The notes beneath the pieces are model-generated. The model made no database searches and was not told the DNA's origin. It saw only the letters and a program-made list of their open reading frames with translations. 64,000 nt of DNA from Amoebophrya sp. A120 (lineage: Eukaryota; Protista; Dinoflagellata), in contig CAJINV010000002.1 of NCBI GenBank assembly GCA_905178155.1, positions 10,952,634-11,016,633 on the forward strand, given 5' to 3'. Numbering within the stretch: position 1 is the stretch's first letter; every line of letters begins with the position of its first letter. The position numbers were made by a program, and so were the translations under genes. Below, piece by piece: positions 9,594-45,400 of this stretch.

Positions 9594-10738
9594 TATTGCT
9601 TTGCATAAGAACTAGAGAACACATAAACATGTTGCTTGACTGCACTTACAGTGTGGATCTGGATACGGAGAGCCGCGTTTGCATGAGGAAATTCAATAAC
9701 AACGACTCTTCCTCCGATAGAGGATTGCGGTCGAGTACCACGTCCTTGTAGAGGATTCTTGATGTTCTTCCTCGGTTACGATGACACGCGTGGCCAGAAA
9801 ATGGAAAAATATCCACCAGCACTTTCTCGCCGGATCGAGAGACTAAAAACTTGCCAACTTGCAACTGCTCTCGAAGTTCAAAGATATGAGATCACTCAGC
9901 TAATGCTAAAAGTCAAATTGAATCGGTACCGAAACAGGTGAAAGTGAAGTGGAATGGGATGGAAAATGACAAGAGCGTGGAAATAAGCTCGAGTCGGTAA
10001 ATACTTCGGATTTGTGCTGCAAAGTGAGTCAGACCTCTAAGCAGATCGGTTGCTAGAGCCACGTGCAGGTAGATTCTTTTTCTTGCATTTGCATTTTTCT
10101 GGAAGACGAAGAGGCAAATTCGAGGAACAGCAGATCATCCGAAAATGTAAAATTCATCGCAAAGATCATCATTAAAAAGATCACAATAATCATTCGTGGG
10201 CTGATTTTGGTTCCCTATGATCCCTCGCGCCTAGTGCTAGTAGTGTTGCCTGTAATTTGACGTAATCATATCTTCGACTCCGATCTCGCCCTTTGAAAAA
10301 CCCTGCACAGGCCTTCAAGTTAGCGTCCTCCTGCCCACCTAGCAAAAACCTTTTCCAATACACCAATAGAGAAATTCAAATTCGACACCGTGAAGGCACA
10401 TATTAGCAAATACAAAGTCACACACTTTTTACTTATACCTGTAAATAAGCAAAACATAACTTATTAGAAACGACACCCAAAGCAAAAAAAAAACATCTGT
10501 AGTCATTAACGTTACGAGCATTTACGATATCATTTTTTCCGTACTGTCTGAGTCAGAGCAGCATTGAATTTGGAATTGATATTACGAGAGACCACAGACG
10601 CAGTTGTGTAGCTAGCACGAAAGACAAAAAGCTTTTCAGTTACAACTGTTATCCGTTAGTCACTGCATTGATTGTCATCGCCTTTTCTGCGTCTGAAGCC
10701 TCACTTTTTCTCTTTTTCCAACGCGTTTAACCATCAAA

Positions 10739-12544
10739 ATGTTCCGAACTTTTTTCGTCCTATCTGTCTTTCCGGTTGCGCTCGAGGGAAGCGAGTTTCG
10801 GGCAGATTCTCCTGTTTTCGATAGTAGCGGAATCGGAATAGTGGTACCAGATGTCATTGATCATAAAGATTGTCCAAATCCTCTAGATCCGGTTTACGGG
10901 GTACCTGCAGGGTTCGTACCGCGCCCCGGTCACACTGGCAGCAGCAGCAGCTCGTCGGCTCCGTGTGCGGCATCTGGTGCTGATATATTTCGCTCAGCGA
11001 AGCAGGAAAGCAGAAGTAGCGGACGAAGTGCACAAGATTTTCTCCCGAATCCGGAACAGAAGTTTGTGGCTGTACGTACGGTTGGCGGACGAGAAATCGA
11101 CCGCCTGCGGACCGATGGGGTGCTCACGCATACGGATTTCGCTCGAATCGAGAAAATTCTCGGAATTGACCGGACGAGGAACAGGGTGAAGTTGATTGGC
11201 TTGGGTAGTACTGCAACAGCAACAACTCCTGGCCGTCCACTTGCCTCCGCGGTCGCGCGAGGAACAGCGGACCCGCATGCACCGTCACGGCATCGCGCAA
11301 ATTCTTCTAGTCCGCCCCGCAAGAAGAACGGAAGAAACAAGATGACTTCGCGGCACCGCTCTCCTAGCGCAGGGTCCGCCCGCGGTAGGCGACAAAGAGC
11401 GGAGCAAGCCAACAGAGAAGTAGCTGATTTAGAATTGGAAGTCGGCCAGCGCGTGCCCGAGACTCTGCAATCGATTCAGGCAGTGGTCACTGCTCGCTAC
11501 CGCACTGCGTTGGACAACCTCCACGAATTGTTGTTTGCCGAGAAGTCGCAGTTTCTGCTGGCGCGTCTCCGTACCACGATGGAGGAGGATGAGGAAGCGA
11601 ACAAGCAGTTGTTAGCGAACAAGCTCCTCGAGTTGCTCGTGACCACGGACGAGACCGGAGACTTAGTTCTGCCTCTCGACAACGACAACACGCTGACCCT
11701 CGAGGACTTGGAACATAAAATTGCCGGTCCTTCGGGAGTGTTGAGTGACGTCTCAAGGGCCGGAAGTTGGGGGCCGGATTGGATGCAGTTCGACCCCCGC
11801 ACGAGTGATGCAGACAAGCTCTTGCAGGTTCGATCTCATGGCGGTATACTCGAAATGCATGCCGTGCTCCACGATTGGCGAGGTGTTTTCATTCAGGATA
11901 CAACATGTTCATCCTATGCAAGAAACGCCGAGGGAGCAGAAGCACAAGATGAAGAGGTGGAGGCAGCTGCCATTTGTGCCGCCTCAAGCGCGAGGCCCCC
12001 GAGCGGCCAGATGATCGCCGCAACTGGTAACCAGAAGGCTGACGACGGTGCAGCTCGCCGGGCTCGGGAGGAAGTCCCGAGACGCGAGTTCGATATCGAG
12101 TACACATTTAAACGAGCAGCTGGAGGGGTTGACGCAGCGAATCCTGGTGCCGTAGCGGGACCTTTGTCAGACGGGGTGCGCCGATCGCCGCGTGTTGGCC
12201 GCCGCAAGGGGCACGACGACGACGACGTTCTCACCGGGCTAATCTTGGCACGCAAAAGTGTTCAATGGAATTATTTGGATGGTCGTGAGCATGATGAGCC
12301 GGAAGATATGTACAGTTTTGCTGTCGATGGATTTGAAAACACCAACAACGGAGCAAAAGTGCAGATACGTCTTCGCGGGTTGGTGTCGCATGACCGTGAC
12401 GAGAGCGACTCAGATGACGGAGCGCAAGCGGGGCCTCAAAACTTCGAGTTTCAGATCGAGGTGACTCGTGCCGACGGAGATATCTACTCCCTTAGGGTGA
12501 TGGAAGCCCAGGCTGACGTACCGGTTCCTACTGGCGGTCAGTAG
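10739..12544 (+). CDS. Intronless hypothetical protein (601 aa) with predicted signal peptide
   Basis: Long ATG-initiated ORF with hydrophobic N-terminus MFRTFFVLSVFPVALEG, a basic patch and acidic segments. No family recognised. Confidence 0.75.
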   Translation: MFRTFFVLSVFPVALEGSEFRADSPVFDSSGIGIVVPDVIDHKDCPNPLDPVYGVPAGFVPRPGHTGSSSSSSAPCAASGADIFRSAKQESRSSGRSAQDFLPNPEQKFVAVRTVGGREIDRLRTDGVLTHTDFARIEKILGIDRTRNRVKLIGLGSTATATTPGRPLASAVARGTADPHAPSRHRANSSSPPRKKNGRNKMTSRHRSPSAGSARGRRQRAEQANREVADLELEVGQRVPETLQSIQAVVTARYRTALDNLHELLFAEKSQFLLARLRTTMEEDEEANKQLLANKLLELLVTTDETGDLVLPLDNDNTLTLEDLEHKIAGPSGVLSDVSRAGSWGPDWMQFDPRTSDADKLLQVRSHGGILEMHAVLHDWRGVFIQDTTCSSYARNAEGAEAQDEEVEAAAICAASSARPPSGQMIAATGNQKADDGAARRAREEVPRREFDIEYTFKRAAGGVDAANPGAVAGPLSDGVRRSPRVGRRKGHDDDDVLTGLILARKSVQWNYLDGREHDEPEDMYSFAVDGFENTNNGAKVQIRLRGLVSHDRDESDSDDGAQAGPQNFEFQIEVTRADGDIYSLRVMEAQADVPVPTGGQ

Positions 12545-13817
12545 GCTGCGTCTACGTATAGACGAAGCGCAAACACCCGCTGTCCTCGTGATCTGAAAGT
12601 TTTTCTTTCTGAAAAACCAGTTCATGCCATACCTTGACGGGTCTCCCTATGCTGACGCAAAATTGGAAATGTTCTACAAAGGCGTGCGCAGCAGTTCCAC
12701 AGAACAAAAGATAAAAAAGGTCTACTTACTTTATTTTGTGCTTTGATAAATATATGCTCATGGCGAACGAATTTTAGTCATGTTTTACTTACGTATACGC
12801 TAGCAAAGAAACGCTATGCGTCTTTGTTTGCGACCGACGAAATGAAAAATAATCGGGAAATTTACATGTGGATTTCCCGCGCGCCTTGTTGTATGATGTG
12901 CCACATGTTATCACATTTATTTCTTGACTTTTTGCTTTATACTTGAGAACAAAGTCGAGATTGGTTATTAGCCAGCCTTACTCTGCACACAAAAATGTCA
13001 ATAAAAGAGAGCGCTCTACTATCTCGAGTACGTATGTACCAGAAATACGTCGACGTGATGAGTTTAAGTTTATGATGTATTTCCCGGGCTCCCGCTACAA
13101 CTGCTCTATGTTTTTTCTTGTAATTCTAATTCGATTTTCGTCATTTCGCAAACTGGGTCTAAACGTAGACATCTAGAACCAAAGATATCAAATAATGAGA
13201 CCTACCGGCTACCGCGAACGTGCTATGGTGCTCAACGAGAATGACCTCAGCGTCTTTATCATGGCCTCTATCTAGACAGTCCCTTGACCTAGACCTTCCG
13301 CTTTTCGAAAGCCGTTCTGCTAACTCAGAACTCAATAAGAAGTAATGGTGCATAAACATACGTATACTATGTCATAGTGTTCTCCTATAATATCATAGTG
13401 TTCTCCCGAGGTGGTGGAGCCAACGAGACCGAGAACTTCTCGATATTTGTTTCAATCATCGGCCCGATCATCGTGTTGTTGTTTTTTTTCATTTGCTCCA
13501 TTTCTTTACATGTGACTTTGGTTTCTGTTCTTGTTCCGAAGCTGCACTTTCCGCATCAATTTTGCGCTGTTTTGGTTTACCGTTTTTGTGTCGTTCTGTG
13601 CTTCATCCACATAGATTGTTCTCGTCTAATAAGTTGCAGAACGCCTGGCCGCCCTGGGTGCTCAGTCTCTTCAACTTGTCTGTTGAGTTCATAACTCCTC
13701 AGTATTCTAGGTTGCTGCTAAAATAAAAAACGAAATTGGTCTACTCATTGCGACAGAAATAACTTGTGGGGGGCCATTTTGCTAGTTGCCGTGATCGTGG
13801 TCTCGCGGCGTCACACA

Positions 13818-16800
13818 ATGGGCGGACGAGAGTCGTACGCCAATCAGGTCGTATCAAGACGTCGGTCCGTCCCCGCCGCGTTTGTAACTGCGGACGCTGC
13901 AGCGTCGCAAATGAGAATGATATCTGGACTAGCGGCAGTTCTCTTCCGGCTGATTTTTCTGGAGCTCCCGTCCCTCTCCGAGTCGCGGGTGCAGTTATTC
14001 AAGTTGCAACCTACGATCACAGGGAGACCGTCCCGTATACCACCTGCGCCTCTTCGTTCACGCGGTTCAGACAGCACTTCGTCTGCCTCCGCGACGACAA
14101 GCGGAACCACTGTGACCGAATCCGTCGCTGAGCAAGTAGAGGATGATGAGCCAGTACTCGCGCGGTCCCGGACAAGAAGACGATCTGGACCGGCCGCAGA
14201 GACTGACAACTACGCGATTACCGAAGACGTAGACAATGCCGGGCGCGTGATTCGGAGCGTCAATTTTGCGCGGCCGTCGGATGGGATTGGGCTTGATGAC
14301 GCGCTTTCTTCGCCGGAAAACGGGTTCGACGGCACAGGAGCCGCTACTAGGCGTCGCGGTGGAACCGTATCTGGATCTGCTGAGCCAGCGGAGGAGAACC
14401 GCGGAGCGAGGTCTTCGCAGCTGGGGGCCGCGAGATCAGGTAGAAGAAATAATGCCGCGAGACGGGCGCAAGTGCGTAGTGGTACTGATGCAACCTCTGG
14501 GGCAAACGCCAGTGCAGGGGCGAATGGCACAAGAGCTGGAGTGGCAGCCAAAGACGGCCCGGACGCTAGAACGGAAGAACATGCCGCTTGCAGTCTCCCT
14601 GCGGTGGACGAGTTTCTGGTGCGATCTCTCAAAACGCAGCGGGAGCGGCGACAGGAGGCACAGGATCGCAACTGCGGATTCCTTCCCATCCGATCAGTGG
14701 CGGACCACGAAAGACTGGCGAAGCGCCTAGAAGACTGTCCACACCTGGCGGATCAGGTTCGCCCTCCTGCTGAAATTCGTCTGGTCGCTTGTAGTTTCGC
14801 TTGAGACCTTTATTCAGCCCCAGTCAGTCTTTCTTGTGTTTGAATTGCTTCGGCGTTTCTTTTGATCCCTACAACTAGTTTCGGTTCTTTCATTTAGCAC
14901 TTCTCATTGGGGGTCTTTCTCGGAACAAAGTGATGTCTTCAACATAATCAGTTACCGAAGCTCTGCAGTCCGCAGCCGCACACGGGAAAGGAGCTTTACA
15001 ACTGCTTGCTGATGAACCACGTGCCATCCGAGCTTAGTTGTCCGATCTCGTTGCAACTGCTGACCAAGCCGGTACAGATTCCGGCTGACGGCACCAAGTT
15101 TCATTTCGAACAGGACTGCCTCGAGAAGTGGTTCGCGAAAGAGAGAAGCAAGCCTGCCCGCGAAGAGGGGCAGCCGGTGCGGTTGACGCATCCCCTGACC
15201 AGGCAGGAGCTCTACGGCCCCGGCCCCCACATGCAGCCGGCGTGTGCGGCGTTCAGAAAACAACTGAAGGACTTCGACAACCTGTGCAAGCAGGTTTCTC
15301 GCGAGCACTGCTACGAAACCTACGAGCGGCGAAAATACTTGGGCTCAGCTACGACTTGTGGCAGCGGGTGCGGCACATCAACGGGATCGAGTCTCGAAAT
15401 GCTCGCCTCGCGCTGCGGTGGCGGCCCAAGCATGTCCAAATCCCAAAGGCGGCGCGCAAGCCGACGGCAGCGAGATCGTCAGGAGCGGGAATCGCGAGGC
15501 GGAGTGGCAGTAGATGATCATGAAGATGAGGCACAATTAGAAGCTGCCCTCGACGCTGAACTACCTGCGCGAGCAAAAGCCGCTGCGACCGAGAATACTA
15601 TACAGCCAATCAGTGGTCGGACTGCGCCAGGCACTCTGCTGGACGACCCCAGAAGTACCAGCGCGTCGCCAGCGAGCCCGCGTTTGGCTGCTTCTCGCCC
15701 CCGCAGCGCCAGAACTACGAGCATTACAGGGTCTTCCGACCACCCGGAGAACGTGCAGCGGATACACGACGAGGACGAGATCCATTCGGTGCAGTCCCAT
15801 TCAGTGCCCGAGGAGGACGCAACACCCATGGCGCTCGGCAGGTCTCGATCCTCTGATAGAGCTGCGAGCCCGGGGCGGCTCCTGCACGAGTTGCACCGCG
15901 GGTCGGGGGGGACAGCGAACGCGTCTGGGGCCACCACCTTTGCCGTGTACGACGGCTCCTCCTTTGAGATTCCTTACGATGATCAGAACGCGGATGCGCC
16001 CGACGGGGGTATCGAAGAGGCGACCGGAAGGACGGAATCGTCCGGCGGACTGACCACTCGGTCAAGCACAGCAAGTAGTTACAGCAACTATCACCTGCCA
16101 GCCTCCGCGAGCAGCTCCACGATTGCCACGCTGACAAGCAGCCCCCTGCTGCGAAGCACAAGTAAGCGGAGCTCGCCAGGTACTTACCCATATTACGCGC
16201 CAATATAAAAGAAAAAATGGCTGCTGTGAGAGCGAAGCGATTCTTTGCGGTTTAGGATTTAGCGAAGCGATTCTTTGCAACTTTTGGTTTTGCCGAAGGC
16301 AGACATTTTTGATGTCAGTACAGAATAAATCTCATCTCTTGTTGCTTTTGCTGGTCGTGTTGGACTCAAAGAAAACAAAATTTCAGACTCGCCGGTGATC
16401 TCTCCGCTGGTTTTGGACGGTGACATTACCTCTCTTTCGGACGACGACGGCGAGGAAGAGGACGACGAGGACGGTAGCAGCCAAATAGACACGAGCAGAG
16501 TGTTGGACGAGCGCACGAGCTGCACCGACCAAGAAATTGAGTGTTTGTCGCTGTTGCTGGGGTCTTTAGACTTGCAGGCCGAATGCAACCATCGTCACGT
16601 GGAGGAGGTGCTGGAGCAGACCCAAGCGCGAAATAACTACCTTGCCTCGCTCTCGAAGCAGCAGCGGTACATGAAATAGAAAACGTATGCTAGAATACGC
16701 GTAGTAGAAGTGTAAAGTAATTCGTTTTCGATTTTGTCCCGGTGCAGCATCATTTTCGAACAAAACAACTTCGGACAACACGACTCTCGCACCTCTATCC

Positions 16801-17955
16801 AACACAGAACCACGCTCGCGCGAACTCGGACCAACGACCCGACCGGGCTGGCTCTTGAGTTCTACGTGAAGACCAAGACTGCACCGAAGGAGGTCTTCGA
16901 AAAGTCCGACGCAAGCTATGGCGTTCTCAAACGTTACATTCTCAATTGTTACATGATTTGTAATACAAAACGAGCATCATCATCAACATTCACAAGGTGA
17001 AGCCACTTCGCATGACAAATTTTGGAAAGGCTAAACAGCACCTAAATCCGTGCGGAATTTGTGATGCTACAGGTGGAACCTCCCTGCTTTGACTTTTGCC
17101 ATTCTTGCATCACAAATCCATGTTGGCTTCGGTCCGCCTGACTCCGCGACCCGGTGGCCTGACCATCTGCGGAAAGGTGCCCTATGGGTTGCGTTTGTGG
17201 TTTCTTTCGGTCGGTTTAGCATCACAAATCCATGTAACATTTGAGAATGTAACAGTTGAGAACGCCATACAAGCAGCGACACGGAGGATGCGAATCGGTG
17301 CTGCTGGTTTTCTATCAAATGCAAAAATGTCTGGGTCTGGAAGAGTCATGCTGTTTTTGCATGACGCAGAAGGTCTGGCATGGAAGCTCTAGCATCACAG
17401 GTTTCGAGAAGCGTTCGCCATGCCGAACCCGCATGACAAACCCCTGATTTTGGTGACAGAAAGTGGGCAACTTTTGCTGCATATGCATGAGAGATTTTTC
17501 TGTGTTCTGAAATGCGCATCGCAAGTTGCAGGCTAACCTTCCAGACCCAGACATATTTGCATTCCATATTTTCGCCTTTGAAACGCATCTTACGTAATCT
17601 CCCCGCGGTTCCCCGCGGCCTGCGCACGCCTGCGGCATTCTTTCGTTCTCCGCGGAGAAGTAGAAGTAGTACTGGTAGAGCTAGTGCGAGCACAGAGGCC
17701 GCGAGGCGTGCTTCCTCGCGTCTAGGCTTTTCGCGAGAAGGTCACCCGGAGTCTTCTGGTGGTAGATTTAGTAGTGGCCCCACAACTAGCACCACATACG
17801 CTGGCGATGGCGGAAATGGCGCCAGCCACATTCTTTCAGCGCCCGGAGGTGCCGGCAATTTTAGTGCCTCTGCTTCTAGCACTTCCACGCCTGCGCAAAT
17901 GGCCGGAGCGCCACTGACGGCTTCCCCGCGGCGGGTGTCCTCCTATGCGCTTTAA
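13818..17955 (+). CDS. U-box domain protein (putative E3 ubiquitin ligase), exons approx. 13818/13911-14756, 14952-16179, 16387-16666, 16808-16916, 17275-17312, 17574-17955
   Basis: VPSELSCPISLQLLTKPVQIPADG..FEQDCLEKWF....THPLTRQEL matches the U-box pattern. GT-AG introns 14757-14951, 16180-16386 and 16667-16807, plus two TIR elements whose removal gives KSDAS|SDTEDANRCCWF|SPLKRILR. Confidence 0.8.
16231..16278 (+). repeat. 18-bp direct repeat x2 within an intron
   Basis: AGCGAAGCGATTCTTTGC at 16231-16248 and 16261-16278. Confidence 0.85.
16917..17269. mobile_element. Introner/MITE-like element, family D (353 bp), 5-bp DR CAAGC
   Basis: ~48-bp imperfect TIR TATGGCGTTCTCAAACGTTACATTCTCAATTGTTACATG...CATGTAACATTTGAGAATGTAACAGTTGAGAACGCCATA. 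CAAGC at 16912-16916 and 17270-17274. Excision is in frame. Confidence 0.92.
17313..17568. mobile_element. Introner/MITE-like element, family C (256 bp), 5-bp DR TTTTC
   Basis: 31-bp TIR TATCAAATGCAAAAATGTCTGGGTCTGGAAG...CTTCCAGACCCAGACATATTTGCATTCCATA. TTTTC at 17308-17312 and 17569-17573. Excision is in frame with ORF 17512-17955. Confidence 0.92.
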
Positions 17956-20561
17956 GTATAACAGAGGGTAGCGAGGATCCGACACGTTGAAATCAAAGCG
18001 CTCCTCCTGCTCTTCGATTATTGGAGATAGGCAACACTCACACTGGCACGGCGAGCTGAGGTGCTGCTGGCTCAATATAGTTCAAATTTTGTGCAACAGC
18101 ATTTATTTTCCAGTCCCGTTTCAGGCGCACAGCCCGCACCGCGAAGGTGTCGCGGTTTCTCGAGTGCAGCCGCGTTGCGTCAGCACGCTATCGCTCTGCT
18201 CTCTGACGCCTTGTGGGGAAATTGATCTGCAACTTTGCCATTCGTATTGGAAGCGAAGGTGCTTCAGATCAGGTTCTATGTAAGTATGACGTAAGTTGCA
18301 GTTCTTCTCATCTTCTTGCCGCGTGATTCAGATAAAAGTTTTGTGGTTGTTTGTTCTATCGGCCTTTCTAGAGTAGTTGCTTGCGAAATATTCCTAGAAA
18401 CGTGCGTCATTTGTACATTAGGTTGCTTGAAGGTAGACCGCTTTCACCGGTAATCAGTAAATGTAACGGGTACTGTACCTGTTCATGGTTCATCTACAGT
18501 AATATCGTTTCGCTTTCTGCTCGCAGCGTCCCACCTGTTACCGTTAGAAATAAAGGAGTAAAGTAGAAAGACGGCAAGCTGCAAACAATGCTCCTGTTGC
18601 AACAGCAACAGGAGTTTACAATGAATGTATTTTTCGGGCTGCAAAATGAAAAAGTGCAGAAGCAAATGGTTTCGTTCAAAATGCCTCAAACAAGGAGAAT
18701 TTCAATCTTAGTTATTTTTGAATGCGCGGGCGACATCACCTCATGATTTAGATTTATTGTAGTACGCTTTTGTTCATTTACATTTTCTTGGTCTGTCATC
18801 ATCTCCTGCATTAATTTGCAAAACAGATCCTGCCCCTACATTTATTACTCGCCCGCCGCCGCAGTATCGCGTGGTGTTTACAATCCACCCCGCGACCGCA
18901 GCTGCGAGAGTTGGTGCTGCTTTGGTTTCCTGATGGGGTCCTGCCTCCTGCGCCGAAGTACAGAGCCATTGTGAACAACATCTTCGACTTCTACTGAGTA
19001 GTATCGGGGGGGCAACAATCTGTCATATCATCATGGTGAAAGAATCGTGGATGGAAATGAATGTTGTCAACAGGACAAGGTGGTAACAGCAAAGAATTAG
19101 TCGCATTCGCAACAGTAAGGCACCTTCGTCCATTCGCTGCAATAGTTGGAACAGTCGTGCTTGGGCTTTCGCGTCGTCGTGATCGTGGTCGTGTTTCAAT
19201 TTCAGCTGCAGACGCAAGGCAACGGGCGAGGAGCGATGTTATCTTTTTCCAAGAGGGAATGCGAATCATGAAGAAAGCTTGAGTAGAAAGTGGAAACTAT
19301 ACAGAATTGAAATATTCGCTAATGTTAACGTAACGGTATCAGAAACAATAAATAAAGTAGTGCATCTGCATGCCCATGCAGGTCGTTGTTGATTTTGGGA
19401 GTACAGGTATCCTTTTCTGCGAAAAAAAAACGTCTACTTTCTTGTACAATTTATCCATCTTGGTTGTGAACTGCAAATAAAGCTGCACTGTTATGAATAT
19501 GTGTACGTTCAAGTAGTTTTGAATACCCTGGGGTTCGAGCTTTTGTTGGGTCGTGCTGATGCCATTTCCCGAAAATACAGAAAAAAACGCTTCTCGCTGA
19601 GAATAAAGTTTTGGACCGCAAAAAATATTTTTCGACAGTCTACGTCAGAAATTTTGTGCTGGGGAGCGCAGCTCCTTCTCCAATTCAAACGTATATTACG
19701 GTTAAGGTTACAAATGAAGCCGTTTGATAAATGTCAATGAATAACCCGCTTTAGTTTTGTCAGGTACTCGCAGGAAGGTACACAAAGACAAAGAATAAGA
19801 AAAAACAGAACCTACGTGAAAATTTCTTTCTCACAATTTTGGCTGAAAGTGGCGCGAATCACTTAGAGTTAGGACCGTGCCGAAGGCGGGGAGCTATTAT
19901 CGAAACTGGTAATCAGGAGGTCTGCCACCTCGTGCTCTTCTCGAGGCGACTCTGATCTATGTAAAAATGATTTTTGTTTGAAGTAGATGAGTTTTCATCG
20001 GCTTTCTCGAACAGTGATCTTTCATTGATTTCGGTAAATGAACCTGCATCGTTGTCACCCTGTCGACTTCTCGAGAAAGTACGATTTAATACTGGGATGA
20101 AAGGTCTTGGTATTAGTTCTTTCGTAAAGAAAGGGGTGGGATTCGTGAATCGTTCCTGGTTGGGCCGCCATTTGTAGCAGGTACTTTCACAGCACTTTTC
20201 GTAGCGTCAACTCGTGGTATCGTCAGTAGTCGGTAAGTATTTCTTTTTCCGATGGCGGTGTAGATGTTGTAGAAGAAATTGTGCAGCACGTAAACACTTG
20301 AAGAAGTAGGAGAATATTTGGGAGGAGGTCATCGACCATGCTCGGTTTTAAAAGTAAGCCTCTAATGGTAATGATGATTACGTATCGGCAGCGATGATAG
20401 TCATGGCAGCTGTCAAAGAAGTGACTATGAATGTCTCTGCCTCTTTACAGTAGAAATTAAGATGAGTTCCCGCTCGTGCTCTATTTTCCTGTAAAGAGTA
20501 CTGTTCGAAGTAGTCCAAGACAAGGAGGCAGCTCTAGACTACTGCTAACTCTGCCCAGAAA

Positions 20562-23500
20562 ATGACGAGCGTCTACAATCAGGAGCAGAACCAGGCGCGA
20601 ATCATTGCCGAACTGCAGCGACTCCTAGCAGAAGAACGTCGGCAGAGATATGAAGTACTTCGTGTGCTTTTTGCTTTTCGAGTACTTGCAAAATCACATC
20701 ACACTGCTTGCATTCCTGATTTCAATTTTTTTCCGGTTTTGTGGTTGAAAATCCAAACAAACTGTACTTCCCAGCATCTGAACTTTCCAGGTGCAAGAGC
20801 GTTTGGATTCGCAGGACGCGCTGGTCAAGGAGGATTTGCGGTTGTTCCGGGATGTTCAGCAGGAGGCCAGCGTGGACCGGGAATTTCGGCAGCACCTGGA
20901 GGACCGTATCTCCGTGCTGGCGACGCTGGGTGACCGGGCGGAGAACGCCCGGAAGAAGGCTTTGTATCACGTGTTCAAGGGGACCACCGCGAGCGTGGCG
21001 AACGTGCTCTCCGTGGGCGGGTCCCACGTGAAAAAACAGCTGCTGGCCATGGACGAGCCGGACCTCGTCAGTGATGTCCAGGCGACGACCGGGGGAGCAG
21101 GGATCAGCATGCCTCCGTCCTCTGCGACGACCGCTAAGACGCCGCTGGAGCGAGTGGAGCACTGCCTGACCCGCGCGGAGACGTCGTTTGCCGCTCTTTC
21201 GGACGTGAACATTCTCCGGACCAACCGGCTGTACGAGGAGGAGCTGGGGAAGCTGCGGAAAGAGGGGAAACAGCTGCTGAAGACCTGCCAGAACGTCATG
21301 GCGCACATCAACGACCTCGGGCGCGCCCTGGTGAAGGAGGAGCAGCTCGTGGAGAAGGCGCACGCGAAGCGGATCTCGGTGCGGAACATGGGGAAGCGAC
21401 CCTTCTGGCAGGGGGAGTTCATGGGGATGAACCAAACGCTGCAAAACTTCAGTGCGAATATCAGTAGCTTCTCGGAGTCGTTGCATTTCACCGAGCGCAT
21501 GCTGCTCCGGTTTAGCACCTCAAAGCGCGACAACGAGTTCTTCTACGACACGAAGTCGAAACAAAGTTCTACTTCCAAAGCCTCCTCGAAAAACTCCTTT
21601 CACCAAAATAACTCGGCCGGGACGCCAGCGACCAACGTGGGCACAGCGGGCGCAATGTCGACGGCGAAATTGGTGACTGCGATGGAGAAGGGAATTAACG
21701 TTTCGACCCACCGGGCCCACCGGCGCACCGCCGAACTGTTTCGCCAGCCGGACCCGAGTCGCGGGAGCTACTCGGAGCGCGTGGACGCGTGGGGAAGTCC
21801 GACGAAACGAAAATTGCTGTCACAACCGAATTTAGTGGTCGCTGACGGAGGCGTGAGTACGACGGCGAACAGCAGTGATTTGCAGCGCAGTCTGTACCTG
21901 AACGGATACTTCACCACGATGAACGCTTCGGTTGGCGGCGCTGCGAACCTTGCATCGGCAAACGTCTCGAAGACCCCGACCACCGTCATCAACGGCACTG
22001 CGACGCCGGTCAACGTCGGCCTGGCAGCGCAACAACAGCAGCTAGGCCAAGGCGTCACGCGCATGAGTATGCAGGGCTCCGTTGTGAACGGCATCAACAC
22101 GGCCACATCTACTGTGCAACAAGAACGTGCGGTGCTAGGTAATTCGTCCGACGGAGGAGCACCAACTGCTGGCGCTGCCCTTCTGGGAGCGACAAATGTC
22201 GAAGTTGATACCAATGCAAATGGAGATTACACCAACACTCTCCAGCTGGACAACACGCGCATGCAGCGGCTGACAACCATTTCGAGCGCCGAGCAGCCAT
22301 TCGTCGACCGGCCTTTCGCATCGGCGCACGAGGAATTTACGTTCGAGCCCAACACGGGGGCGGGAATGAACAAGAACCCAACGCTGTACTACGCCGAGAG
22401 CTTGGGAAATTCGCATTTCGACCTGAATGTACCCGCGCACCACGGCGCGCCGCACCCAAACAGTGCGGGCACTGGTTATGTTGCAGCGTCCGAAATAAAG
22501 ACAACCTCTGCACCAGCATCGGGAGAAGTTCTTGCAGCTCCGGGCGGAAGCTCTTCCGAAGTAGACGACAATCTTCGCCTCCAAGCCACTACAGAAGTTC
22601 CCCTGTTCACTCAACAGCGTCCAGGATCTGCGGGGAAGATCCGTTCGGTTGGAGTGGCAGCAGTCCCTGCGAATTCAAATTCTTCGTCGTCTTCCTTGTA
22701 TGTGACGCGCCCGGGTGTGACGGAGGGGCAAACTGATCTGCACAGCAAGATCTCATCCACCGTGCCGACCTTCGATCCCCGCGGCGCTTTCGACTACTTG
22801 GAAAACAATAGCTCGAGCGCAACTACTTCCAGCGCTCACGCACAACGGATAAACCCTAGCACAACAGGAGCTGGTGCTGCGAGTTTTTCCATCGTGGAGA
22901 GGATGCGACAGAATCTGACCGAAAAATCCAAGATCTCGAATCCTCCCTCTGTTGTGACCACGCCGACGGAAGAGCAAAGCAAAGCAGTAGGCACGACGAG
23001 CAACGCAACAGGCACGGGGTCATCGTTCAAGAAACCCCTGCTGGCGAGCAACCCCTTTTCCAGTACACCGGCGCCCACGGGTGTTGCTGCGGAGCCGGCG
23101 ACGGCTGTCGATCGGGACAACAACGCGGGAGCTGCTGCTGGAGTGCCACCTTCGCAGATGAACCTCTTTGAGGATGACCATTTCTTATCGAAAACTCCGC
23201 AGCCCAACGGAACAGTTTTTCTCACAAACATGAACAAGAAGACACCGAACACCAGCGGCTTGGCGTTAGACATCAGGGACTTCATCGAGGGTGAACTTTC
23301 ACCTGAAAAGCGCCCGTCGCAGGCTGTAAATACGACAATTTCCGCTCCTGCAGCCGCTTCATCGGGGGTCGAACAAAACGAATCAGTCAAACAGTTTGCC
23401 GAGACGTTTCAACTGGACCTGCACAGCGCGTCTCCGCCGAAGTACCAAGAATTGCTCGGATACAGCAGTGCCAATGCCGCCGTAGTAGAGCCAGTAGTTG

Positions 23501-23631
23501 CAGCGGGTAATACCGCATCACACATCAAATTCGAGCGTGCCACCACCCTGGGTTTGGAAGCCGCAGACCGGTCCAGCCGCGAGCTCTTTGATTTGCAGCT
23601 CCCGGCCCAAAACGACTTTGACGAACCCTGA
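20562..23631 (+). CDS. Hypothetical protein (~977 aa), N-terminal coiled coil plus long S/T/A/N low-complexity tail; exons 20562-20654, 20791-23631
   Basis: Phase-0 GT-AG intron 20655-20790 joins RQRYE to VQERLDSQD. Long open frame with coding-like codon use. Confidence 0.8.
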
Positions 23632-25092
23632 GAAGTGGGCTTCCTACGGGAGGACAAGTCAGGGCATCGGAAGTGAGTTCAAGATGATCGTGAAGCAAGG
23701 AGACCGTTTCCGTTCAACTTGCTGCACCATCCAAGCCGACTTTCATTCCCTGAGAAAATAAGACCAGTAGACGAAATAGAATTTAACGATAGACATTCAG
23801 TCGCGTATCCGTTTCCTCCGGTTCCGTACCTACAACCTAAATCAATTACCTGCACTACGTAAATACAAACGGAAAATTGTTCCCTACCAAAGATTAAAGA
23901 AATCACCAAGTAAAATATCCAGTACATTATACATAGTGCCACCGTTGTTTGACCTTGTTGAAAGACCACGTACAGCAGTTAGTTTCCGTTCGCTTGAAAG
24001 ACTAGAAAATTTGTTGATATGGTGCAGATATCTAGTTGAGGACTCTATCTCTATGTATATGGTCCTTGATGTTGACGTCTTGCTTTTGCGTCCTGAATGT
24101 AAATCTTTGTTTCGTGCAATTTCGTAGCTTTCTCAAAAATATGACTGCGAGAAACTACGCTAACAAATGTCATTTGTTGGGTTCCTACCCTGTAAGTATG
24201 TGATGATCGACGCAAAATAAGAATAACCCTGTAAGAAAAAATTTAGTTGCGCAATGCCAATGCTTAGGTGTATCATCACAAAAATCACAAACGCAAGCGC
24301 ACAGACACGACTGGACCTTGAGCCGCACGCTGACAAATCGAAGAGATGTAGTTGACTCAGCCAGTAATTCTTGTGACTTTAAGCAGACTATGGGCACGAG
24401 GAGACCAGTTTATTTCTCGCTGCAATGGTTATACCTGCGTCTTCGATCCTTTCGGGATGGCAAGTATTCACGAAGAGCTTTTTTTGGTCCGGAGTTTTGC
24501 TTCCCAGAATGCTGGGAAAAATGATCAAAGATCTCTCGATGTTGTCCCGGTTGCAGGTGTCGCATCGATATATGATCCTTCCTGTCCACCATTTTGCCGC
24601 CCTTACTTTTTACCACTACGTATTGATTGTTGATGAGTCAACATCTTCTCGTCCGTTCACAGATCACGCAACGAGTGCCGGAATCAAGTCACCAGTGAAT
24701 TTTGTCTTTCAGGCTGATCTTTGTCTTTCCTAAAGAGCCGTCCTCTAGTCTTTGGTTACGTTTGCATTTTTTCACATCCCGGTTTTCGTGCAAATTTTGC
24801 CATTTTTTAAAGGTTACTTCGAAGCTAAGAAAGTCGCTCTCTTAAATATCTATATTCATTGCGTGAGATATAGAATAGAGGCCGACGCATACGCTTCGTC
24901 AAATGAATTGATCGCGTTCTTTACATGAGTATTTAAACTCCTTGCCTTAGTATGCGCGGCCCAATAGCAAATACATCAAAATGGTTAGTGGGGAGGAGGT
25001 TAGGCTTCATCTAGTAGCTTCTAGCCCTGTTGCCGCCGATCCAGAGCCTTAGAAAGATAGTGACCTGCCACCCACCCACTGGAAGCTGGAAA

Positions 25093-28000
25093 ATGCTGTG
25101 GCCATGCACTGACTTGATTTCTGTATCTATTCCGCGCAAGCATTACCATGATCTCGTCTCGCGAGTGATCCTGATTCTCCTGTTCGGGATTTTTGCTTCG
25201 CGCGATGCTTTTAGTCTTGTCGGGCCGGGAACAACCACTCCACACGCGTTCTTTGTGCACGGAGGCTGGATCCGTCCCCGCAACAAGAAGTTCCATCTCT
25301 GGGTTCGGCAAGGTCCGCGATCTACCCGGGAAGCTTCGAGCACTTTTGCGAAAAGCGGGGGGCTGCCCATCCTGTCGGTGTACACGGGTCGACGGTACAT
25401 ACGGGTCCGCAACGACGCGAAGCTCGTCACGGATCACGAGCGCTCTCTTGCGTATCGACAGGGCGACGAAGAAAATGATCCAGTGAATAGCTTCCTGCAG
25501 AAACAGCGACAAAACCACATCACTCAGATGACAAAAACTTGTAAGTCGGAAGCTGTCCTATGAACTGCAAAAGTGTCGTACTCGTATAAATGCATGACAA
25601 ATTCCCTCAGCATGAGAATTCAGATTTGTAATGCTGATTTGACTTAACGAAAAGATTTGTAATGCATGATTGCAATACGAATACGATACTTTTGCACAGG
25701 ATATGTCCGGTATGATGACAACTTTGACCACGTGGATAACATTTTTCAGCTCGGAGCCGATGCCGCAGATGAAGATCCGTACAACAAGGGTAATAATCAG
25801 TTTGGGCGGACGACGGAGTACAATGAGAAGGAAACGAGACAGCGCGACGCCGACGCACAGGAGCAGCGATCTCTAGCCTACTCTTTGCTTCCCGGCTACA
25901 GGTACGCGGAGCTGCGTTGGTGTACGCCCGCGAACGTGCGGAGCAAGGTGTGGACGTGGATAACCACCGCCATGGTCCAGGTACCCTGCATCGCCGTGGA
26001 CTTCCTCCGTGGGCGCCAGGCGGACCTGCTGCTGCCGGAGGAGGAGCGGAAACACGTAGAGTTTTTCGCTGGTGGGCGTCATTTGTACTCGTATCAGACG
26101 GGCGAGCTGCTGGACGACAGGTACGAGCGTATGTTGTTCGACATTGACATGCGGGAGTGGGAGCACGTAGACCTGCGGCAAGTGCAGCACGAATACGATA
26201 AGGCACAGCTGATCCAGCGCTTTTTTCGCCACGCCGGGCTGCTGAACGGTATCGAGCTGGTGGCGGACAGCGAAACTTTTGGCCACCGCACGCTGTTTAT
26301 CAACTGTAAAAATGTCTGGGTCTGGAAGAATTCATGTTTGTCATGCTTGTCCGGCATGACTCTTAAATCTGTCATGCACGTTACCCAAGAGCTCCGCTTT
26401 TCTGTGATGCAGAAGCGCAGTTTGTCATGCAGAATAGGCAACACCTAGGAGCTCAGAAACTTGTCATGCTGAGCCAGCATTTGTAGCCTCATCATGAGAC
26501 GCCACCCAGCATCACAGGCTTCCAGACCCAGACATTTTTGCATTTGATACTGTTCGAGCAGCGCGTCATGGGGCTGTGGTCCAAAGTGTTGACCCAGCAA
26601 ATTTTTCAGAGCGAGGCGGTGTTGAAATACTTCGAAGAGTACGAGGAGGAGACTGCAAGCGAAGAACGCAAAGCCGTGGGCAAACACCGCCACACCACCG
26701 ACTGGCACTGGCGGCGGGGGGTCATGAAGGTGCAGATCTCGCTGAGCGAAAGGGAGGAGCAACGCTGGCGCCGGCGGTTGCACCGTCGGATAACGAAGGA
26801 AATCGCTCAAGAAGAAAATAGCCGGTCACAGGGGCGGCTTTGTGGCAGTGGTGGTGCAGGGATAAGCTTTAGGAACGAAGACGGAGGTGAACCTCTTGTT
26901 GTCGCAGGTCCGCGTGAAAATAATGCTGCTCCTGCTGCTGCACCTTCCTCTTCGTCTGTTGATGTTCTGGCAAACAGTCCACCACTGATGTCGTCCACTT
27001 CGTCTCTAGTAACTTCGGACCGAACTGGCGCCCGTGTTTTTGCATCGCAAGGATCTGCACCTGAACTCGCAACACGGACCAAGAGGAACTTCGACGCAGC
27101 AGCGCCTTCCACCTTCCGCTCTTGTTGTCCGGACAAGTGCGCGGCCACGAGGGAGCTCATCTTCTCGGAGCTGTCTGAGTGTCGTGGATCAAGCATGACG
27201 GCATCACCCGACGGACTAGACGGCGGCACGGCGGCCCCACTTTTGTCAGCCGAAGCTGAGTTAGATGATCATGGTACGGCATTGGAGCCGCGAGAGGCGC
27301 ACGTGATCGACGATTTTTGCAGCACTGGTGGAGCAGGACTCTTTTTGCAAGAAGGTCGAGAAGGCCGTCGCGCTTCTGCTGCCAGGAGAATGAAAAGTAC
27401 TGCATCTTTTTCTACAACATCCTCAAATGGAGAACACCCTTGTTTGTCAGATTCCTGTCGCAATCGCTCGGAGCAGAATCCCGTCCGTTTCGAGGACGAG
27501 GAGGAGGGGATGGAGGGGACGCGTCTGGTGGAAGATTGCAACGACCGTTGCAGGAGTTTCCCAAATATCAACACGGAGGAACAATCAGCGGCCGAACTCT
27601 CCGCGCGCGGAAATATTAACTGTAGAACTTCCAAGACCACTACCAGTGCCAGTCTAATAGAGAATTTTCAGCTCGAGAGATCATATCGGCAACTATCGTC
27701 ATCTTGTCCGCGCTGTCCTGAAGAAGCCATCAAGATGAAGCAACATGACTTCGATGAGTGCGGGTTTTGGAATAGCAAACGAGAGGAGCTCGCGCCACCA
27801 CAGCTGCAATTTTTACGAACACAGTTTGAAGGTGTGGGATCATCCCATCGGATGAACACCATTTTGCTGCCCGACTCAACATCGAGATCTTCAGTAAAGC
27901 AAGTAGGTTCATGCGATAGTGGTTTTCTCTCCCGGTGTGGCTCGGCTTCAGTGGCTTCGACCCACGCACCAAGTAGCGCATCGGCGACGCCCTTACTGAG

Positions 28001-28556
28001 TTTTTTCGCCGATAGCGCCTCTCCGACGGAGCGGAAAATTTCGCAGAATTCGGCGGACGAACCGGAATTTCGTGAAAGTTTCTCCTCGGTAGACCATACA
28101 GTGCAGTTGTTCGCCGGTGATGTTGTGGTGGGAAACAAAGAAACAGATAACATTCTAGCAGGGGGGCTACTACGACATGCAGATTGTGCGTCGAGAAGAA
28201 TTCCAACAAGCTTCTGTCGCACCAGTTCCTGTCAAGACGCCGATGAGAACATGCGTTTTCTAGCACAAGACCGCCGCACAACTGATAGCACTTCTACTCC
28301 GGATTTCACAGCGACGGTCCGGGGATGTCGCTCCGCTACCTACAGCTCCGCCGGCGCACCATTGCATCGGAGCAGCACTGATACAGACTTACTGCTTCTC
28401 GCTGCTGCGCATCGTGAAGGAATGATGCTGCCGAGTGAAAGTAGCCGTACTTTACAGGACGACCCAGGAAGTGACGAGAAATATCATGGAGGCAGCAACA
28501 CAGGGGCAAGGACGTGGATTCCCCTCTTCGACCAGCATCTTGGGTTTCCGTGCTAG
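25093..28556 (+). CDS. Hypothetical protein (~1000 aa), exons approx. 25093-25558, 25709-26297, 26555-28556; 5' end uncertain
   Basis: ORFs 25030, 25666 and 26538 join in frame on removing two TIR elements (KSEAV|RYDDNF; GHRTLF|EQRVMG). N-terminal hydrophobic stretch VILILLFGIFA. Confidence 0.75.
25559..25703. mobile_element. Introner/MITE-like element, family A (145 bp), 5-bp DR TGTCC, inverted relative to the 1678 copy
   Basis: TATGAACTGCAAAAGTGTCGTACTCGTA...TACGAATACGATACTTTTGCACAGGATA. TGTCC at 25554-25558 and 25704-25708. Interior aligns to 1678-1817 as the reverse complement. Confidence 0.92.
26298..26549. mobile_element. Introner/MITE-like element, family C (252 bp), 5-bp DR CTGTT
   Basis: 31-bp TIR with 2 mismatches. 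CTGTT at 26293-26297 and 26550-26554. Excision is in frame. Confidence 0.93.
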
Positions 28557-30056
28557 CCCTCATATTAGCGGTGCAGAAGAATAACGAAGCTCAATGGAAC
28601 TTTTTTTAGCCTAAGTTTTATGTAGGTGTACCAGTACTAGATGATCTAGAAGAACTAGCAAGAAATATCAAGAAGTAGAGCTGCAGTGAAGCCAAACATG
28701 AGCTTCACTTCGTTTGCAATCACGATATATTACGCCTAAATAAATCAGCATTTTTTGTCGCAAGGCTGTGATTTGGTAAAAATGTTAGACATGCAGTAGA
28801 AGAAGAAGAACAGAAGTACAACAGCAGTACTGCAAGAGATATAAGGTAAAGGCCGCGTCGGTGTCCCGTGCGGGTAATAGATGATGTTGAATCTGGAAGC
28901 ATCGCATTTACCGACGCGGCGTATATCTTTCAAGATTTCTTGCGCGATATTTGCTTGTTGTCACCTTTTTGTGCTCTGCCTCCGTCCTGCACATCTCGCG
29001 ACGAGACCGAAGTACTAGTAGCATGGGCCAGAATAGTCATAGGGATAGGGATAGCCCCATTTGAGTGCAACACAGAAAGAGTATTTGCGAACGATGCGAA
29101 AGCGAAACCATGAAGAACAACGAGGACCAAGAAACGCTAGCTACAAGTAAGAGCAGCAAACGGCTAGGACTACATGCACCGAACAAGACAACTATGACAA
29201 TGCGGATACCGACGGAGACTAACCCGTGCTGCTGCTTGCAGATATTATGAAGACACGTTCTTAGAAGTACTAAAGAAGTGCCATAATTTTTTCGGACGCA
29301 CAGGCATCCTGATCGCACTCCATGTATTGCAATGAAAAATTCAGAAATTAAATGAAATCGCGTACTCCATTTACTGGCTTTTCCCTCAAAAGCCAGCGAT
29401 AGGTACACGACCTTGGTTGTTTGCCGGCGCGAGCGAAGAAAACGATTCCTCGCGATTTTTGCACGGCTGGATGAGACTCGCACTGCGTGTTTGATCGTCA
29501 GCCTCGGCCCCCGAGATAATTCTTTTTCTTGGTTCTTTCGTGTTGTTGGAATACCTACCAGACGTACTTCCTCACTTTTCTGAGTTCTTAACTAAACGAA
29601 GGATCGTCGTCTTCGTCATCATCGATGATTGAATCGTGAATTCGCTCGGTCACGACACCGAGGCTCAGCAAACTCGATCGACATTGTAGATGTTACCGTG
29701 ATGTCGATCAGCGTGAAGATGAGGTGAGCAAGTTTTTGACTTTGAACGGTCGTATTGTGTCGAGCAGAGGACGAGTGATGGTAGAGCGGGTGCGAGAAGT
29801 CTATAATTGATGTCGCCAGTAGTTCTCGTTTCGCGGGCGTGGGCGACGATGAATGAGCGGTCTCGAAGCTGCTGCAGGAGCGCTGTATTGTTTGAATGGG
29901 ACAGATGGAGCAAGGATATTATTCACGTTTTCTCTTTGTGTGATGAAGGTAAAGCCCTACTACTAGGACCAGTTGTACGTTGTAGTGTCGCTAGTACTAC
30001 TACCGCTTGAGGTTGATCCGTACTGCCAGTATCGGTTTCAATTGTTGATCACCAGC

Positions 30057-41832: not shown

Positions 41833-42400
41833 CGACGTGCTACAATAAAGTGAAAATCTTCTCGACGCGTGAATAGATACTTAAGTTTCCATCATGTTTT
41901 CTGGTGCACGGGCCGCGGAATTTTTTTTCTGTTTACCAATTTTAGAAATAATAGAAGAGGGCTCTAGGAGCGTGAGCGCAGACGTACCGGTGTGAAGATA
42001 CTCTCGCGCGACGGTGACCTTGAGTGTAGTGGCTTTATGATGGATTGCCAGCGTTAGCAAATAGTTCCTCCTGTTGCGACGTTGTTGAAGTTTGAGAGAT
42101 GATGAAGTAGAAACAGAAACAAGTAGCACGCGGCACGAACACAGCGGAAAAAAACCCAAAAACTAACAATGGGTCTGCCGTTTACAACACTGTAACTGGT
42201 GAGGAAGATTGCTGTTTTTCCCATACGGCGATATTAATTCATGATCTGCTGGTTCGCTCGTCCCTTCTCGTTTTCGCTGCTTTCGTTTCATGATTGAATG
42301 CTTCAAGAAACGTTCGCACCAACCCGCCGACACCCACACCATCAAGGAAGGTCTTCAGGCCGCGACGGCCGGTGGTTGCGCCCAACTGCTGACCGCCAAG

Positions 42401-45400
42401 ATGGGTTCTAACGAGACCAGGACTATCACTGCAGCATCTAGCAGTAAAGCGCTAGCAGGATCGCCGCGTCTCCACCGGGTTGTGTCCAGTGTTTTCATTC
42501 TTGCCGCAGCAAACAGTGCCGATGAGCTTGCCAGCGCCAATGATAATCCTGGCGTTTCAACATCTTCAAGAACAAGGGCGTTGCGCGCGCACGAATCGCA
42601 GGAGCAGTTGCAGTCCGACGACGAGCGCAAGCCCAAGCATGCTAGTCGTACCACCTCCTCTGGCCGCAACCAGGAGCCGAAGAAGAAAAAGTCTGCGAAC
42701 ATCAAACCACCGAAACCGAAGCCGCCTGAATGCGTTGGACACACAACCGAGTGGGAGGTTTGCCACATGGGCGAGTGCCCCGTCCAAGAGATGGTTTGCC
42801 CGCCGTGCACGTGGACCGAGTGGAGTGAGTGGACGACGTGCACCTGCGACGGGCTGCAGGAGAGGCGTCGTGACGCTGAGCATCAAAGCATGTGCGGCAA
42901 GCCCTGCGTGGGGCCGAAGGTGGAGACCCAGACGTGCATCGCGGAGAACTGCAAGAGCGCCAAGGACGCAAACGCGGAGCCAATCGACTGTGAACTCTCG
43001 GAGTGGGGCGACTGGACCATCTGTGATCGCGCATGCGGTGGCGGGCAGACCTTCCGCGAAAAGGCCCGGATGCGCAAGAACGAGTTCGGGGGGCAGCCGT
43101 GCCACGGCTTCGTGCGACAAACGCTGCCCTGCAACACCCAGCCCTGCCACATCTCGGAGGACTGCGAGGCGAGCCAGTGGTCCACCTGGTCGGCCTGCAC
43201 GAAAACGTGCGGCGCGGACGGTTTCCAACAGCGGACCCGGTCCCTGCTCCAGCTGCCGCGCAACAACGGACGGACCTGCGACTTGGCGCTCGAGGAGGTG
43301 CGCGCGTGTCTGCAGCAGGACGGGAGTTTCATGCCGACGTGCAGCGACGAGCAGGATTGTGAGTGGAAAGAGTGGGAGGCGTGGTCCGATTGTTCGGCGA
43401 GCTGCGACGGCGGGGAGCGAACCCGGGAGCGCCTCATCGCGAAGGCCCCGAAGCACGGTGGTCAGCTCTGCACGGCGCTGACCATGAACGAAATGGCCTC
43501 CTGCAACACGTTTCCGTGCGAAGAGCCGCGGGATTGCGTCATAAGCCGCTGGTCGGACTGGTCCGCCTGCTCTGCCAACTGCAATGGTGTTGTATCCATT
43601 TGGGAGCATTTCGATGCAAATCATTCAAGCCTACGGGATTTCATCTCGCTGATTGTAAATGCACGGGAGTGGTAGTGGTACTAAAAACAAAAAGCATGTT
43701 GTTGACCCACTAACATCGTAATGAGTTTTGAAAAAGTCCTCTGCTGTCAGTCCTCTCACGAGTGTCTCCTGACAACATGCAGCCGAGACCAGGGCTTGCT
43801 TCGTCCTCCGATTGGCTTGCATGATTGATCGCTGAGAAGAAGTTTGATTTGCCCTCATTTTTCCTGTACATAGGCACAGATGCGAGATCGCGCTATCGTG
43901 AAACCTGCCGAGTAAGTACTTGTCGCTTCATCTTGCTTCAACAGATCATGATACGGAGATGCCATTCTCAGTCCGACCTACATGATAAATAGTTAGGAAT
44001 CCCACTCTTCATAAAGAAGAGTACTTGACATTAAGTACCTGCTCCCGCTGTGCTAAGTTTCGTGGAGAAAAGTTCTTGTGTGATGCAGACGAATTCTCCA
44101 TCAATCACGAACAATTCTGATGATCAACTTCTATCTAAGCCCATCCATTCACTTTATTTGCAGGCACGGCGGCACCTGTTTCGACACGTCACTGAAAGAG
44201 ATGCGTAGCTGCAACCACATGGACTGTGACAAGAACGGCGAGCCGATCACGACGTTCACGGAGGACGCGGCTCCCCTTGACTGCGAGCTGTCGGAGTGGA
44301 GCTACTGGTCCGAGTGCAGCGAAACCTGCGGCGCCACGGGGATCCAGAAGCGCGATCGTCACGTCCAGGTGTACGCGGAGGCGGGGGCGCAGCGGGTGTG
44401 CAACGCGACGCTGCTGGAGATCCGCAACTGTCCCGCCGGGACGCTGCCCTCGTGTTACACCGCGCTGGAGGCGGAGGGCATCGCCGCGGCCGGGGTGGAT
44501 TCCACCACCGCGTCCAACGACTGTCAGTGGGGCGAGTGGTCGGCCTGGTCTGCCTGCGACAAGACCTGCGTTTCGTACGCCGACCAGGACTCCGAACAAG
44601 CCACGAAGAAGCGGGAGCGCCGGGTGAAACAAAACCCCGGGGTGCTCGGCCGGCCGTGCGCGCCGCACTCCGCCCTGGAGGTGGCGAGCTGTGAGGTGCC
44701 GGACTGCGAGTGCGGCCCCTGCGAGTTCGGCGAGTGGGCTCCGTGGTCGGTATGTGACCACATCAGCCTCACGCAGACGCGCAGACGCGACCCCCGGGTG
44801 GACCACTACTGCGGGACCGGGTGCACCGGCACGCGGGTCGAGATCCAACACTGTATCCCGCACTCCGACACCGCGGTGGTGGACTGCCAGTTCTCCGACT
44901 GGTCAGCCTGGAGTGAGTGCTCGGCCGAGTGCGGCGGGGGCGAAAAGCTGCGCACGCGGTCCATTCTGGCCCACGCGACGAACGGCGGAAAAATTTGCGA
45001 GGGAGACCTGCAGGAAACCGCGGGCTGCAACATGCTGGTGCAGTGTGGTGACGACTGCCAGATCAGTGACTGGCAGGCCTGGTCCGAGTGCAGTGCCACC
45101 TGCGGAACGGGCCAAAAGTCGAGGCAAAGGTACATGTATAACTATGATTCGTGGACCGGGAGGGCTGTGTCGAAGGGAAACAAAAAACTAAAAACAAAAA
45201 CTACGTGGTCCGGCGGCTTACAACTCTGCTCTTCTAGAGGCACTGCGCCACTGAAAAGACTTGATGGTCTGCCGCAGAAAAAAACTTGTCACATTCTGTT
45301 GCTTGCTTGCAAAACAAGGCCACACCAAATATCATAGGTACGTGCTGAAGCCGGCGTCGAACGGGAAGCCCTGCCACGGGGAGAAGGAGATCGATTTGGT

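Follow-up and report, generated by a model that had tools for sequence, protein, structure and literature searches.

Introduction

The introner elements of Amoebophrya A120 are bounded by inverted repeats that consist of TAT, seven looser bases and a run of A, and by short direct repeats of 3–5 nt. They have a mean length of ~240 nt, belong to many families and are removed from RNA without GT-AG boundaries (available text of PMC7789003). A 2025 survey placed the A120 elements mostly in ‘TIR DNA, unknown’ families of ~105–320 bp, and the A120 family numbered 38 has a 5-bp TSD, TA/TA termini and integrase-like homology (text passages of PMC12130899). TIRs are also found in the integrase-like Ginger/TDD DNA transposons; a 5-bp TSD is made by TDD-4 and TDD-5, while Ginger termini are TGTNR and most Ginger elements make 4-bp TSDs (part of PMC2836005). 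Subterminal repeats are bound by the transposases of the Emigrant MITE/Lemi1 (PMC1636448) and Hermes hAT (PMC10368747) systems, as stated in excerpts of both articles. The nonconventional introns of Euglena, for which a MITE-like origin has been proposed, lack GT-AG, and their splice sites are set by complementary trinucleotides that stand at fixed distances from the intron ends (excerpt of PMC12501133).

The window analysed here, the whole 64,000-nt stretch of A120 DNA, contains eight elements that resemble the A120 introners in ends, direct repeats, size and division into families and may resemble them in non-GT-AG removal, and by their ends (TAT...ATA with a 5-bp TSD) they match those published elements. 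However, they also carry an internal motif, here called the box, that is absent from the available text of the published description, figures and logos aside (PMC7789003).

Elements in the window and at other loci

A scan of the window with the pattern TSD+TAT...ATA+TSD returned 15 candidates, and the eight with 19–24 of 25 identical arm positions (E1–E8, Table 1) sum to exactly 1920 bp (~3% of the window). Candidates at 9486–9607, 24571–25683, 51706–52592, 58519–59979 and 62109–62205 were set aside for low arm identity, and the candidate at 49860–50021 is a piece of the longer intron O2 and not a separate element. The TSD is 5 bp in all eight, with no 6- or 7-bp case, and its base composition is near even. 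The elements have the features of MITEs, being short and non-coding with TIRs, a TSD and a uniform length in each family. E3 exceeds its family consensus (235 bp) by ~115 bp, the duplicated part being the motif-bearing right subterminal region. The summed depth of mapped DNA over the elements is very high, a figure that gives no copy number.

Table 1. Positions in the window of the elements, the parts of E6 and the older introns
Feature	Coordinates	Strand	Remarks
E1	1678–1817		family F1; 2 motif copies
E2	1862–2167		family F9; 3 motif copies
E3	16917–17269		family F5, right part duplicated; 4 motif copies
E4	17313–17568		subfamily D4; 2 motif copies
E5	25559–25703		family F1; 3 motif copies
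E6	26298–26549		subfamily D2; 252 bp with TAT...ATA ends; 6 motif copies, all exact
E6 left TSD copy	26293–26297	+	5 bp; TSD-TIR scan
E6 right TSD copy	26550–26554	+	5 bp; TSD-TIR scan
E6 left TIR	26298–26328	+	31 bp
E6 right TIR	26519–26549	-	31 bp
E6 motif copy 1	26338–26346	-	GCATGACAA
E6 motif copy 2	26369–26377	-	31 bp from copy 1
E6 motif copy 3	26402–26410	-	33 bp from copy 2
E6 motif copy 4	26422–26430	-	20 bp from copy 3
E6 motif copy 5	26461–26469	-	
E6 motif copy 6	26509–26517	+	directly inside right TIR
Predicted E6 intron	26297–26553	+	inferred from -1/+4 rule; TT..GT ends; 257 nt, element plus one TSD
E7	57570–57831		subfamily D3; 5 motif copies
E8	57895–58100		family F8; 4 motif copies
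O1	43592–43876	+	G-TAT...ATA-GGCA; GT..CA; junction unambiguous; no motif
O2	49859–50166	+	T-TAT...ATA-GAAG; TT..AG; junction unambiguous; no motif
O3	50455–50654	+	GT..TG; 1-nt ambiguity; one 1-mismatch motif
O4	50715–50845	+	intact 5-bp TSD, junction slides 5 nt; two 1-mismatch motifs
O5	53154–53410	+	C-TAT...ATG-CTCT; CT..CT; junction unambiguous; no motif

Outside the window, a 20-base TIR pattern of family D was used to select 148 loci of one public assembly, from 151 stretches out of an estimated 530. Family D is thereby biased in favour of intact TIRs. The selected loci have no unique sequence in common with the window, and their strain need not be that of the window. These loci contain 256 distinct elements, and shuffled loci contain none. 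The 249 elements of up to 400 bp and the eight of the window form 13 multi-copy families, the largest of which splits into four subfamilies (D1–D4), and 10 singletons, seven elements of >400 bp being excluded from these counts. The six longer elements that were displayed are nested or insert-bearing and give no sign of a transposase. One TAT...ATA element of 1104 bp (L018:505–1608) has boxes at its left end only and a satellite-like interior, and its size is near that of the 1.1–1.2-kb A120 families in the text passages of PMC12130899.

No autonomous element was found among the 148 loci, and a Pfam search of five open frames (two of the host gene and three in the 61.4–63.7 kb insert) returned nothing. 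The family-D TIR pattern had no match in viral contigs; a TIR-plus-motif pattern had eight, none of which fits a family HMM, and these were taken as chance.

The first-pass annotation had described the TIRs of the families as unrelated, but the pooled ends have the skeleton TAT-[CG]-N6-AAAA in common, in which TAT itself was the search condition and A stands at 86–95% in positions 11–14. Among the window elements, TAT with seven looser bases and at least three A is directly visible at the termini of seven, the exception being E3, whose family is without the terminal A run. TAT and the A run are constant, but TIR positions 4–10 are not the same at the two ends of one element and also vary from copy to copy of a family, suggesting that perfect end pairing at those positions is not required. 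When TIR pairs with a 5-bp TSD were collected with no TAT condition, 122 of 141 were TAT...ATA and none was TGT...ACA, and membership of Ginger was rejected; unlike Ginger elements, those found here end in TAT and encode nothing (part of PMC2836005).

An abundant and conserved internal box

The motif GCATNACA has 38 matches in the window, 29 of them in the eight elements (15.1 per kb). The counts per element (Table 1), their sum over 1920 bp and the six starts in E6 (26339, 26370, 26403, 26423 and 26462 on the minus strand and 26509 on the plus strand) are exactly those of the first-pass annotation. The scarcity noticed there outside the elements was also confirmed, with nine matches in the remaining 62 kb (0.145 per kb), which is the chance level; 100 shuffles of the whole window gave a mean of 7.6 matches and a maximum of 13. 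No exact box was found in the 13 GT-AG introns of the window, and thus the motif is not equally common in such introns or in intergenic DNA.

The motif was refined to nine bases, GCAT[G/C/T]ACA[A/G], which is tighter than the earlier version, with GCAATACA and GCATGAGA as common variants; exact 9-mers had a mean of 0.3 and a maximum of 3 in 300 shuffles of the elements. Among 819 matches, only six have A at the variable position 5 and 792 have a purine at position 9, and the bases after the box are usually a purine, then T. Of the 249 elements from the other loci, 243 carry the box, and none of the 13 multi-copy families is without it, at 6–20 per kb. In the loci, 1468 of 1529 sites lie within element copies and the density outside is 0.15 per kb, overlapping loci being counted twice.

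At 47 aligned sites in the family consensuses, positions 1–4 and 6–8 are 92–98% identical and other interior columns 79%, while position 5 is 77% identical and free among G, C and T. The box positions are conserved like the TIR while the adjoining interior drifts, a pattern that points to sequence recognition and not to simple descent.

Spacing, helical phasing and the proposed role of the box

Spacing and periodicity analysis revealed same-strand pairs 30–33 bp apart and phasing at 10.5 bp. With a 30–33-bp window chosen post hoc and families that share ancestry, the family consensuses contain 12 same-strand pairs at this distance (null mean 2.0, maximum 6; 300 nulls), and the distances between boxes of one strand show a 10.5-bp phase that was equalled in 0 of 300 nulls. 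When one family was taken per independent group, a 30–33-bp pair was present in six of 10 groups (null mean 0.86; 0 of 5000), rising to nine of 10 with one mismatch allowed (null 2.0). Flanks at the 30–33-bp lag are 33% identical against an expected 25%, and this excess suggests that old tandem duplication may contribute to the spacing. For exact sites, an opposite-strand spacing of 14–18 bp was not significant (4 vs 2.2). The outward-facing first boxes are centred either 36–37 or 44–48 bp from the element ends.

It is proposed, with a probability of roughly 0.55, that the box is a phased and conserved repeat that likely forms a double-stranded DNA binding site for a mobilising enzyme supplied in trans, and that it is not a splice signal. 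A transposase site is suggested because the box is fixed in spreading lineages, helically phased, anchored to the ends and lost after insertion, and a splice signal is argued against because older introns without boxes are still cut at fixed offsets from TAT and ATA. One multimeric transposase or DNA-binding partner would sit on several boxes along the same helix face and so keep the TAT...ATA ends in place while they are cut. New families would be founded only by copies whose boxes are intact, and after insertion the boxes would be dispensable and decay. The multi-copy binding site for one trans-acting factor envisaged in the first-pass annotation thus receives indirect support, from conservation, phasing and the presence of the box in families whose interiors do not otherwise align. 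However, the search brought up no transposase or autonomous element, the phasing suits any multimeric DNA-binding protein, and the boxes occupy the whole interior, beyond the subtermini, with mixed orientation at the ends (20 of 32 outward-facing). Family 38 of A120 is a candidate for the mobilising system (text passages of PMC12130899).

The main rival to a transposase is a host protein. The elements may exploit a chromatin protein or other DNA-binding protein of the host, recruited by the boxes, for mobility, targeting or escape from silencing, which is considered unlikely, although a single host factor would easily explain one motif across many TIR families. Helical phasing and the absence of strand bias indicate DNA but not which protein binds it. 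The box core GCATG presumably resembles the TGCATGCA sites of alveolate AP2 factors, a likeness that was counted in favour of a host protein. However, outside the elements the motif is at chance (0.145–0.15 per kb), it does not cluster upstream of the window's genes, and the first boxes stand at fixed distances from the element ends. That Farhat et al. reported no transposase for A120, in the available text, also speaks for a host protein (PMC7789003).

Removal from RNA

Removal with one TSD opens a reading frame for all eight window elements. The frames of E7 and E8 also open with no TSD removed, and length arithmetic for their splicing has 25 solutions and so does not discriminate. The gene that carries E5 and E6 has a frame of 1043 codons that opens only if each element goes with one TSD. 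Contigs presumed to be of RNA type (one sample of one study; 15 of 22 joints displayed) have matching pieces next to both elements: the piece by E5 ends at 25553 while the contig continues, and the piece by E6 begins at 26550 with 562 more bases upstream. The nearest relative of E6 outside the window is 97% alike. Raw RNA reads of runs X10 and X11 give almost no coverage of the genes at 9000–28800. At 17313–17344, reads of X10 include a copy of family D that stems from a different locus and is unspliced, its motif lying directly inside the TIR, possibly through intron retention.

The presumed RNA-type contigs skip ordinary GT-AG introns and five older non-canonical introns with decayed TIRs (O1–O5). 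All five junctions agree with one rule, in which the left cut precedes TAT by 1 nt and the right cut follows ATA, or ATG in one intron, by 4 nt; under it O4 and O5 have neither GT nor AG. This offset is fixed here at -1/+4, whereas the legend of Fig. 3 in Farhat et al. describes variable offsets (PMC7789003). In two of the five introns the terminal triplets are predicted to pair little, suggesting that the ends may be read as sequence when the element is removed. Removal from RNA appears to depend on a key of its own at the ends, and cuts with these -1/+4 offsets would take the element and exactly one TSD regardless of the boundary dinucleotides. That two keys are in use, with a probably integrase-like transposase reading the phased boxes of all TAT...ATA families and the host splicing by a dedicated code, N-TAT...ATA-NNNN, is put forward tentatively, at somewhat less than even odds.

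The first-pass annotation had raised the possibility that the motif is the true identity signal of these introns. This was not borne out, as there is no exact box in the 1181 nt of O1–O5, where the density of young elements would give ~18, and as the motif has no transcript strand bias and decays with insertion age. In host genes, 68 elements have one orientation and 76 the opposite one (strand called for 144 of 237; calls concordant in 116 of 127 same-locus pairs), and the motif is on the mRNA-like strand 209 times and on the other 238 times. Age was assessed with 381 full-length copies from 518 HMM hits, 111 partial or cut hits and 26 with at least three TSD mismatches having been dropped. 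Older copies exceed younger copies by 0.025 changes (0.010 to 0.040) in the motif core, 0.040 in the other interior and 0.006 (-0.009 to 0.021) in TAT/ATA. Motif decay is thus somewhat slower than that of the other interior (bootstrap P 0.08) and modestly faster than that of TAT/ATA (P 0.04), in a test whose end alignment favours intact TAT/ATA.

These results bear on the idea that the box is a splicing enhancer or intron mark for young inserts, acting through RNA or a DNA-bound factor, from which old introns have escaped. All eight elements whose removal opens a frame bear the motif, the mixed orientations leave most elements with a copy on either strand, 1-mismatch copies are kept in O3 and O4 (3 vs 1.7 expected, not significant), and the motif decays slightly less than the rest of the interior. 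However, the five older introns, including the two with neither GT nor AG, are spliced with no exact copy, there is no strand bias, the boxes decay after insertion while TAT/ATA persists, and 10.5-bp phasing is a property of the double helix; a splicing role is therefore judged improbable.

Several further observations were made in the window. Canonical-looking introns at 46000, 46595, 51649 and 57373 also start with G-TAT, and some of these may be old introners that have gained an AG acceptor, or the donor consensus may be related to the introner end. A micro-exon of 8–9 nt lies at 50446–50454 between a GT-AG intron and O3. The gene at 42100–47000, which carries O1, encodes many Cys/Trp-rich repeats that we take to be like thrombospondin type 1. 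At 61438–63731, the presumed RNA-type contigs have 12 nt unaccounted for at 61438, beyond which a loose end matches from 63757, implying an intron of 2294 nt with C-TAC...ATA-GCAC ends, and its removal opens a frame up to the end of the window. The right end of this insert is like the F3/F9 TIR, and within the insert a 28-bp piece of exon is found duplicated, as is, at 62232–62456, an array of alternating GCATGAGA.

Common descent and folding of the interior as rival explanations

The motif could also have no function of its own and be left over from shared ancestry and the exchange of modules between families. The TIR skeleton is held in common, there is a slight excess of identity at the 31–32-bp lag, and with the motif masked some families do share interior modules, as alignments persist among D1–D4, F2/F3/F7 and F4/F8, and F4 and F6 have a 15-bp block in common. 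However, only nine of 120 family pairs align above all 60 nulls, leaving 10 groups from 16 family consensuses, though masking takes away 27–60% of the interior and limits the sensitivity of the alignment. Some interior homology among families exists, without accounting for the motif. Descent alone leaves unexplained both the 92–98% fixity of seven positions amid drifting neighbours and the behaviour of position 5, and a mere relic is very unlikely.

The alternative suggestion of the first-pass annotation, that the motifs are modules that pair to fold the interior, is weak. Opposite copies can pair in the predicted folds of six of the eight window elements, and in four of the eight the interior folds better than shuffles (z-scores -2.4 to -4.7), but over 30 site pairs the variable box position does not covary, the observed value being near the expected one, with none over all six site pairs of D1, and folding is likely a by-product. 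That opposite-strand boxes pair to fold a single-stranded interior, of RNA or DNA, and draw the ends together is the least probable explanation, as the exact copies of E6 are five on one strand and one on the other, those of E2 and E4 are on one strand only, and the old introns, though spliced, have unfolded interiors (z -1.7 to +1.2).

Comparison with known systems and significance

A short motif in multiple copies at set distances inside the TIRs and conserved within families is a feature of subterminal repeats, and the box has it. In this it is like the motifs of Emigrant and Hermes, for which cooperative binding by a multimeric transposase was proposed (excerpts of PMC1636448 and PMC10368747). 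Unlike those, a single box is found here in at least 13 families, over the whole interior and with a 31–32-bp repeat, the elements are introns, and the binding sites are putative. The Euglena code is N3-CDG...CHG-N5-6 (excerpt of PMC12501133), whereas that deduced here, from junctions and not from mutants, is N1-TAT...ATA-N4. The older non-canonical introns appear to work like the Euglena type without being members of it.

No internal or subterminal motif is mentioned in the text passages of PMC12130899 or in 40 of the 58 A120 rows of its supplement, and the parts of PMC11282704 and PMC12005148 that were available contain nothing on the box. Figures aside, neither the box nor its phasing nor the fixed -1/+4 offset is described in the published text searched. 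The elements themselves have thus already been published, while the box, the phasing and the fixed offset are apparently new as far as the literature was searched.

Neither the mobility of Amoebophrya introners nor their splicing in the absence of U1 has been explained (available text of PMC7789003). The box provides a bait for pull-down and a key with which to search for the autonomous element, and the -1/+4 rule would provide a precise, testable splicing code with which gene models can be corrected in this genome, whose introns are mostly non-canonical. Telling the two signals apart separates the selfish part of the element from the part maintained by the host. If the phased boxes and the element ends are indeed read by different machineries, a Euglena-like code of offset trinucleotides would have arisen a second time, independently, and the toleration of tens of thousands of inserts in coding sequence would be explained.
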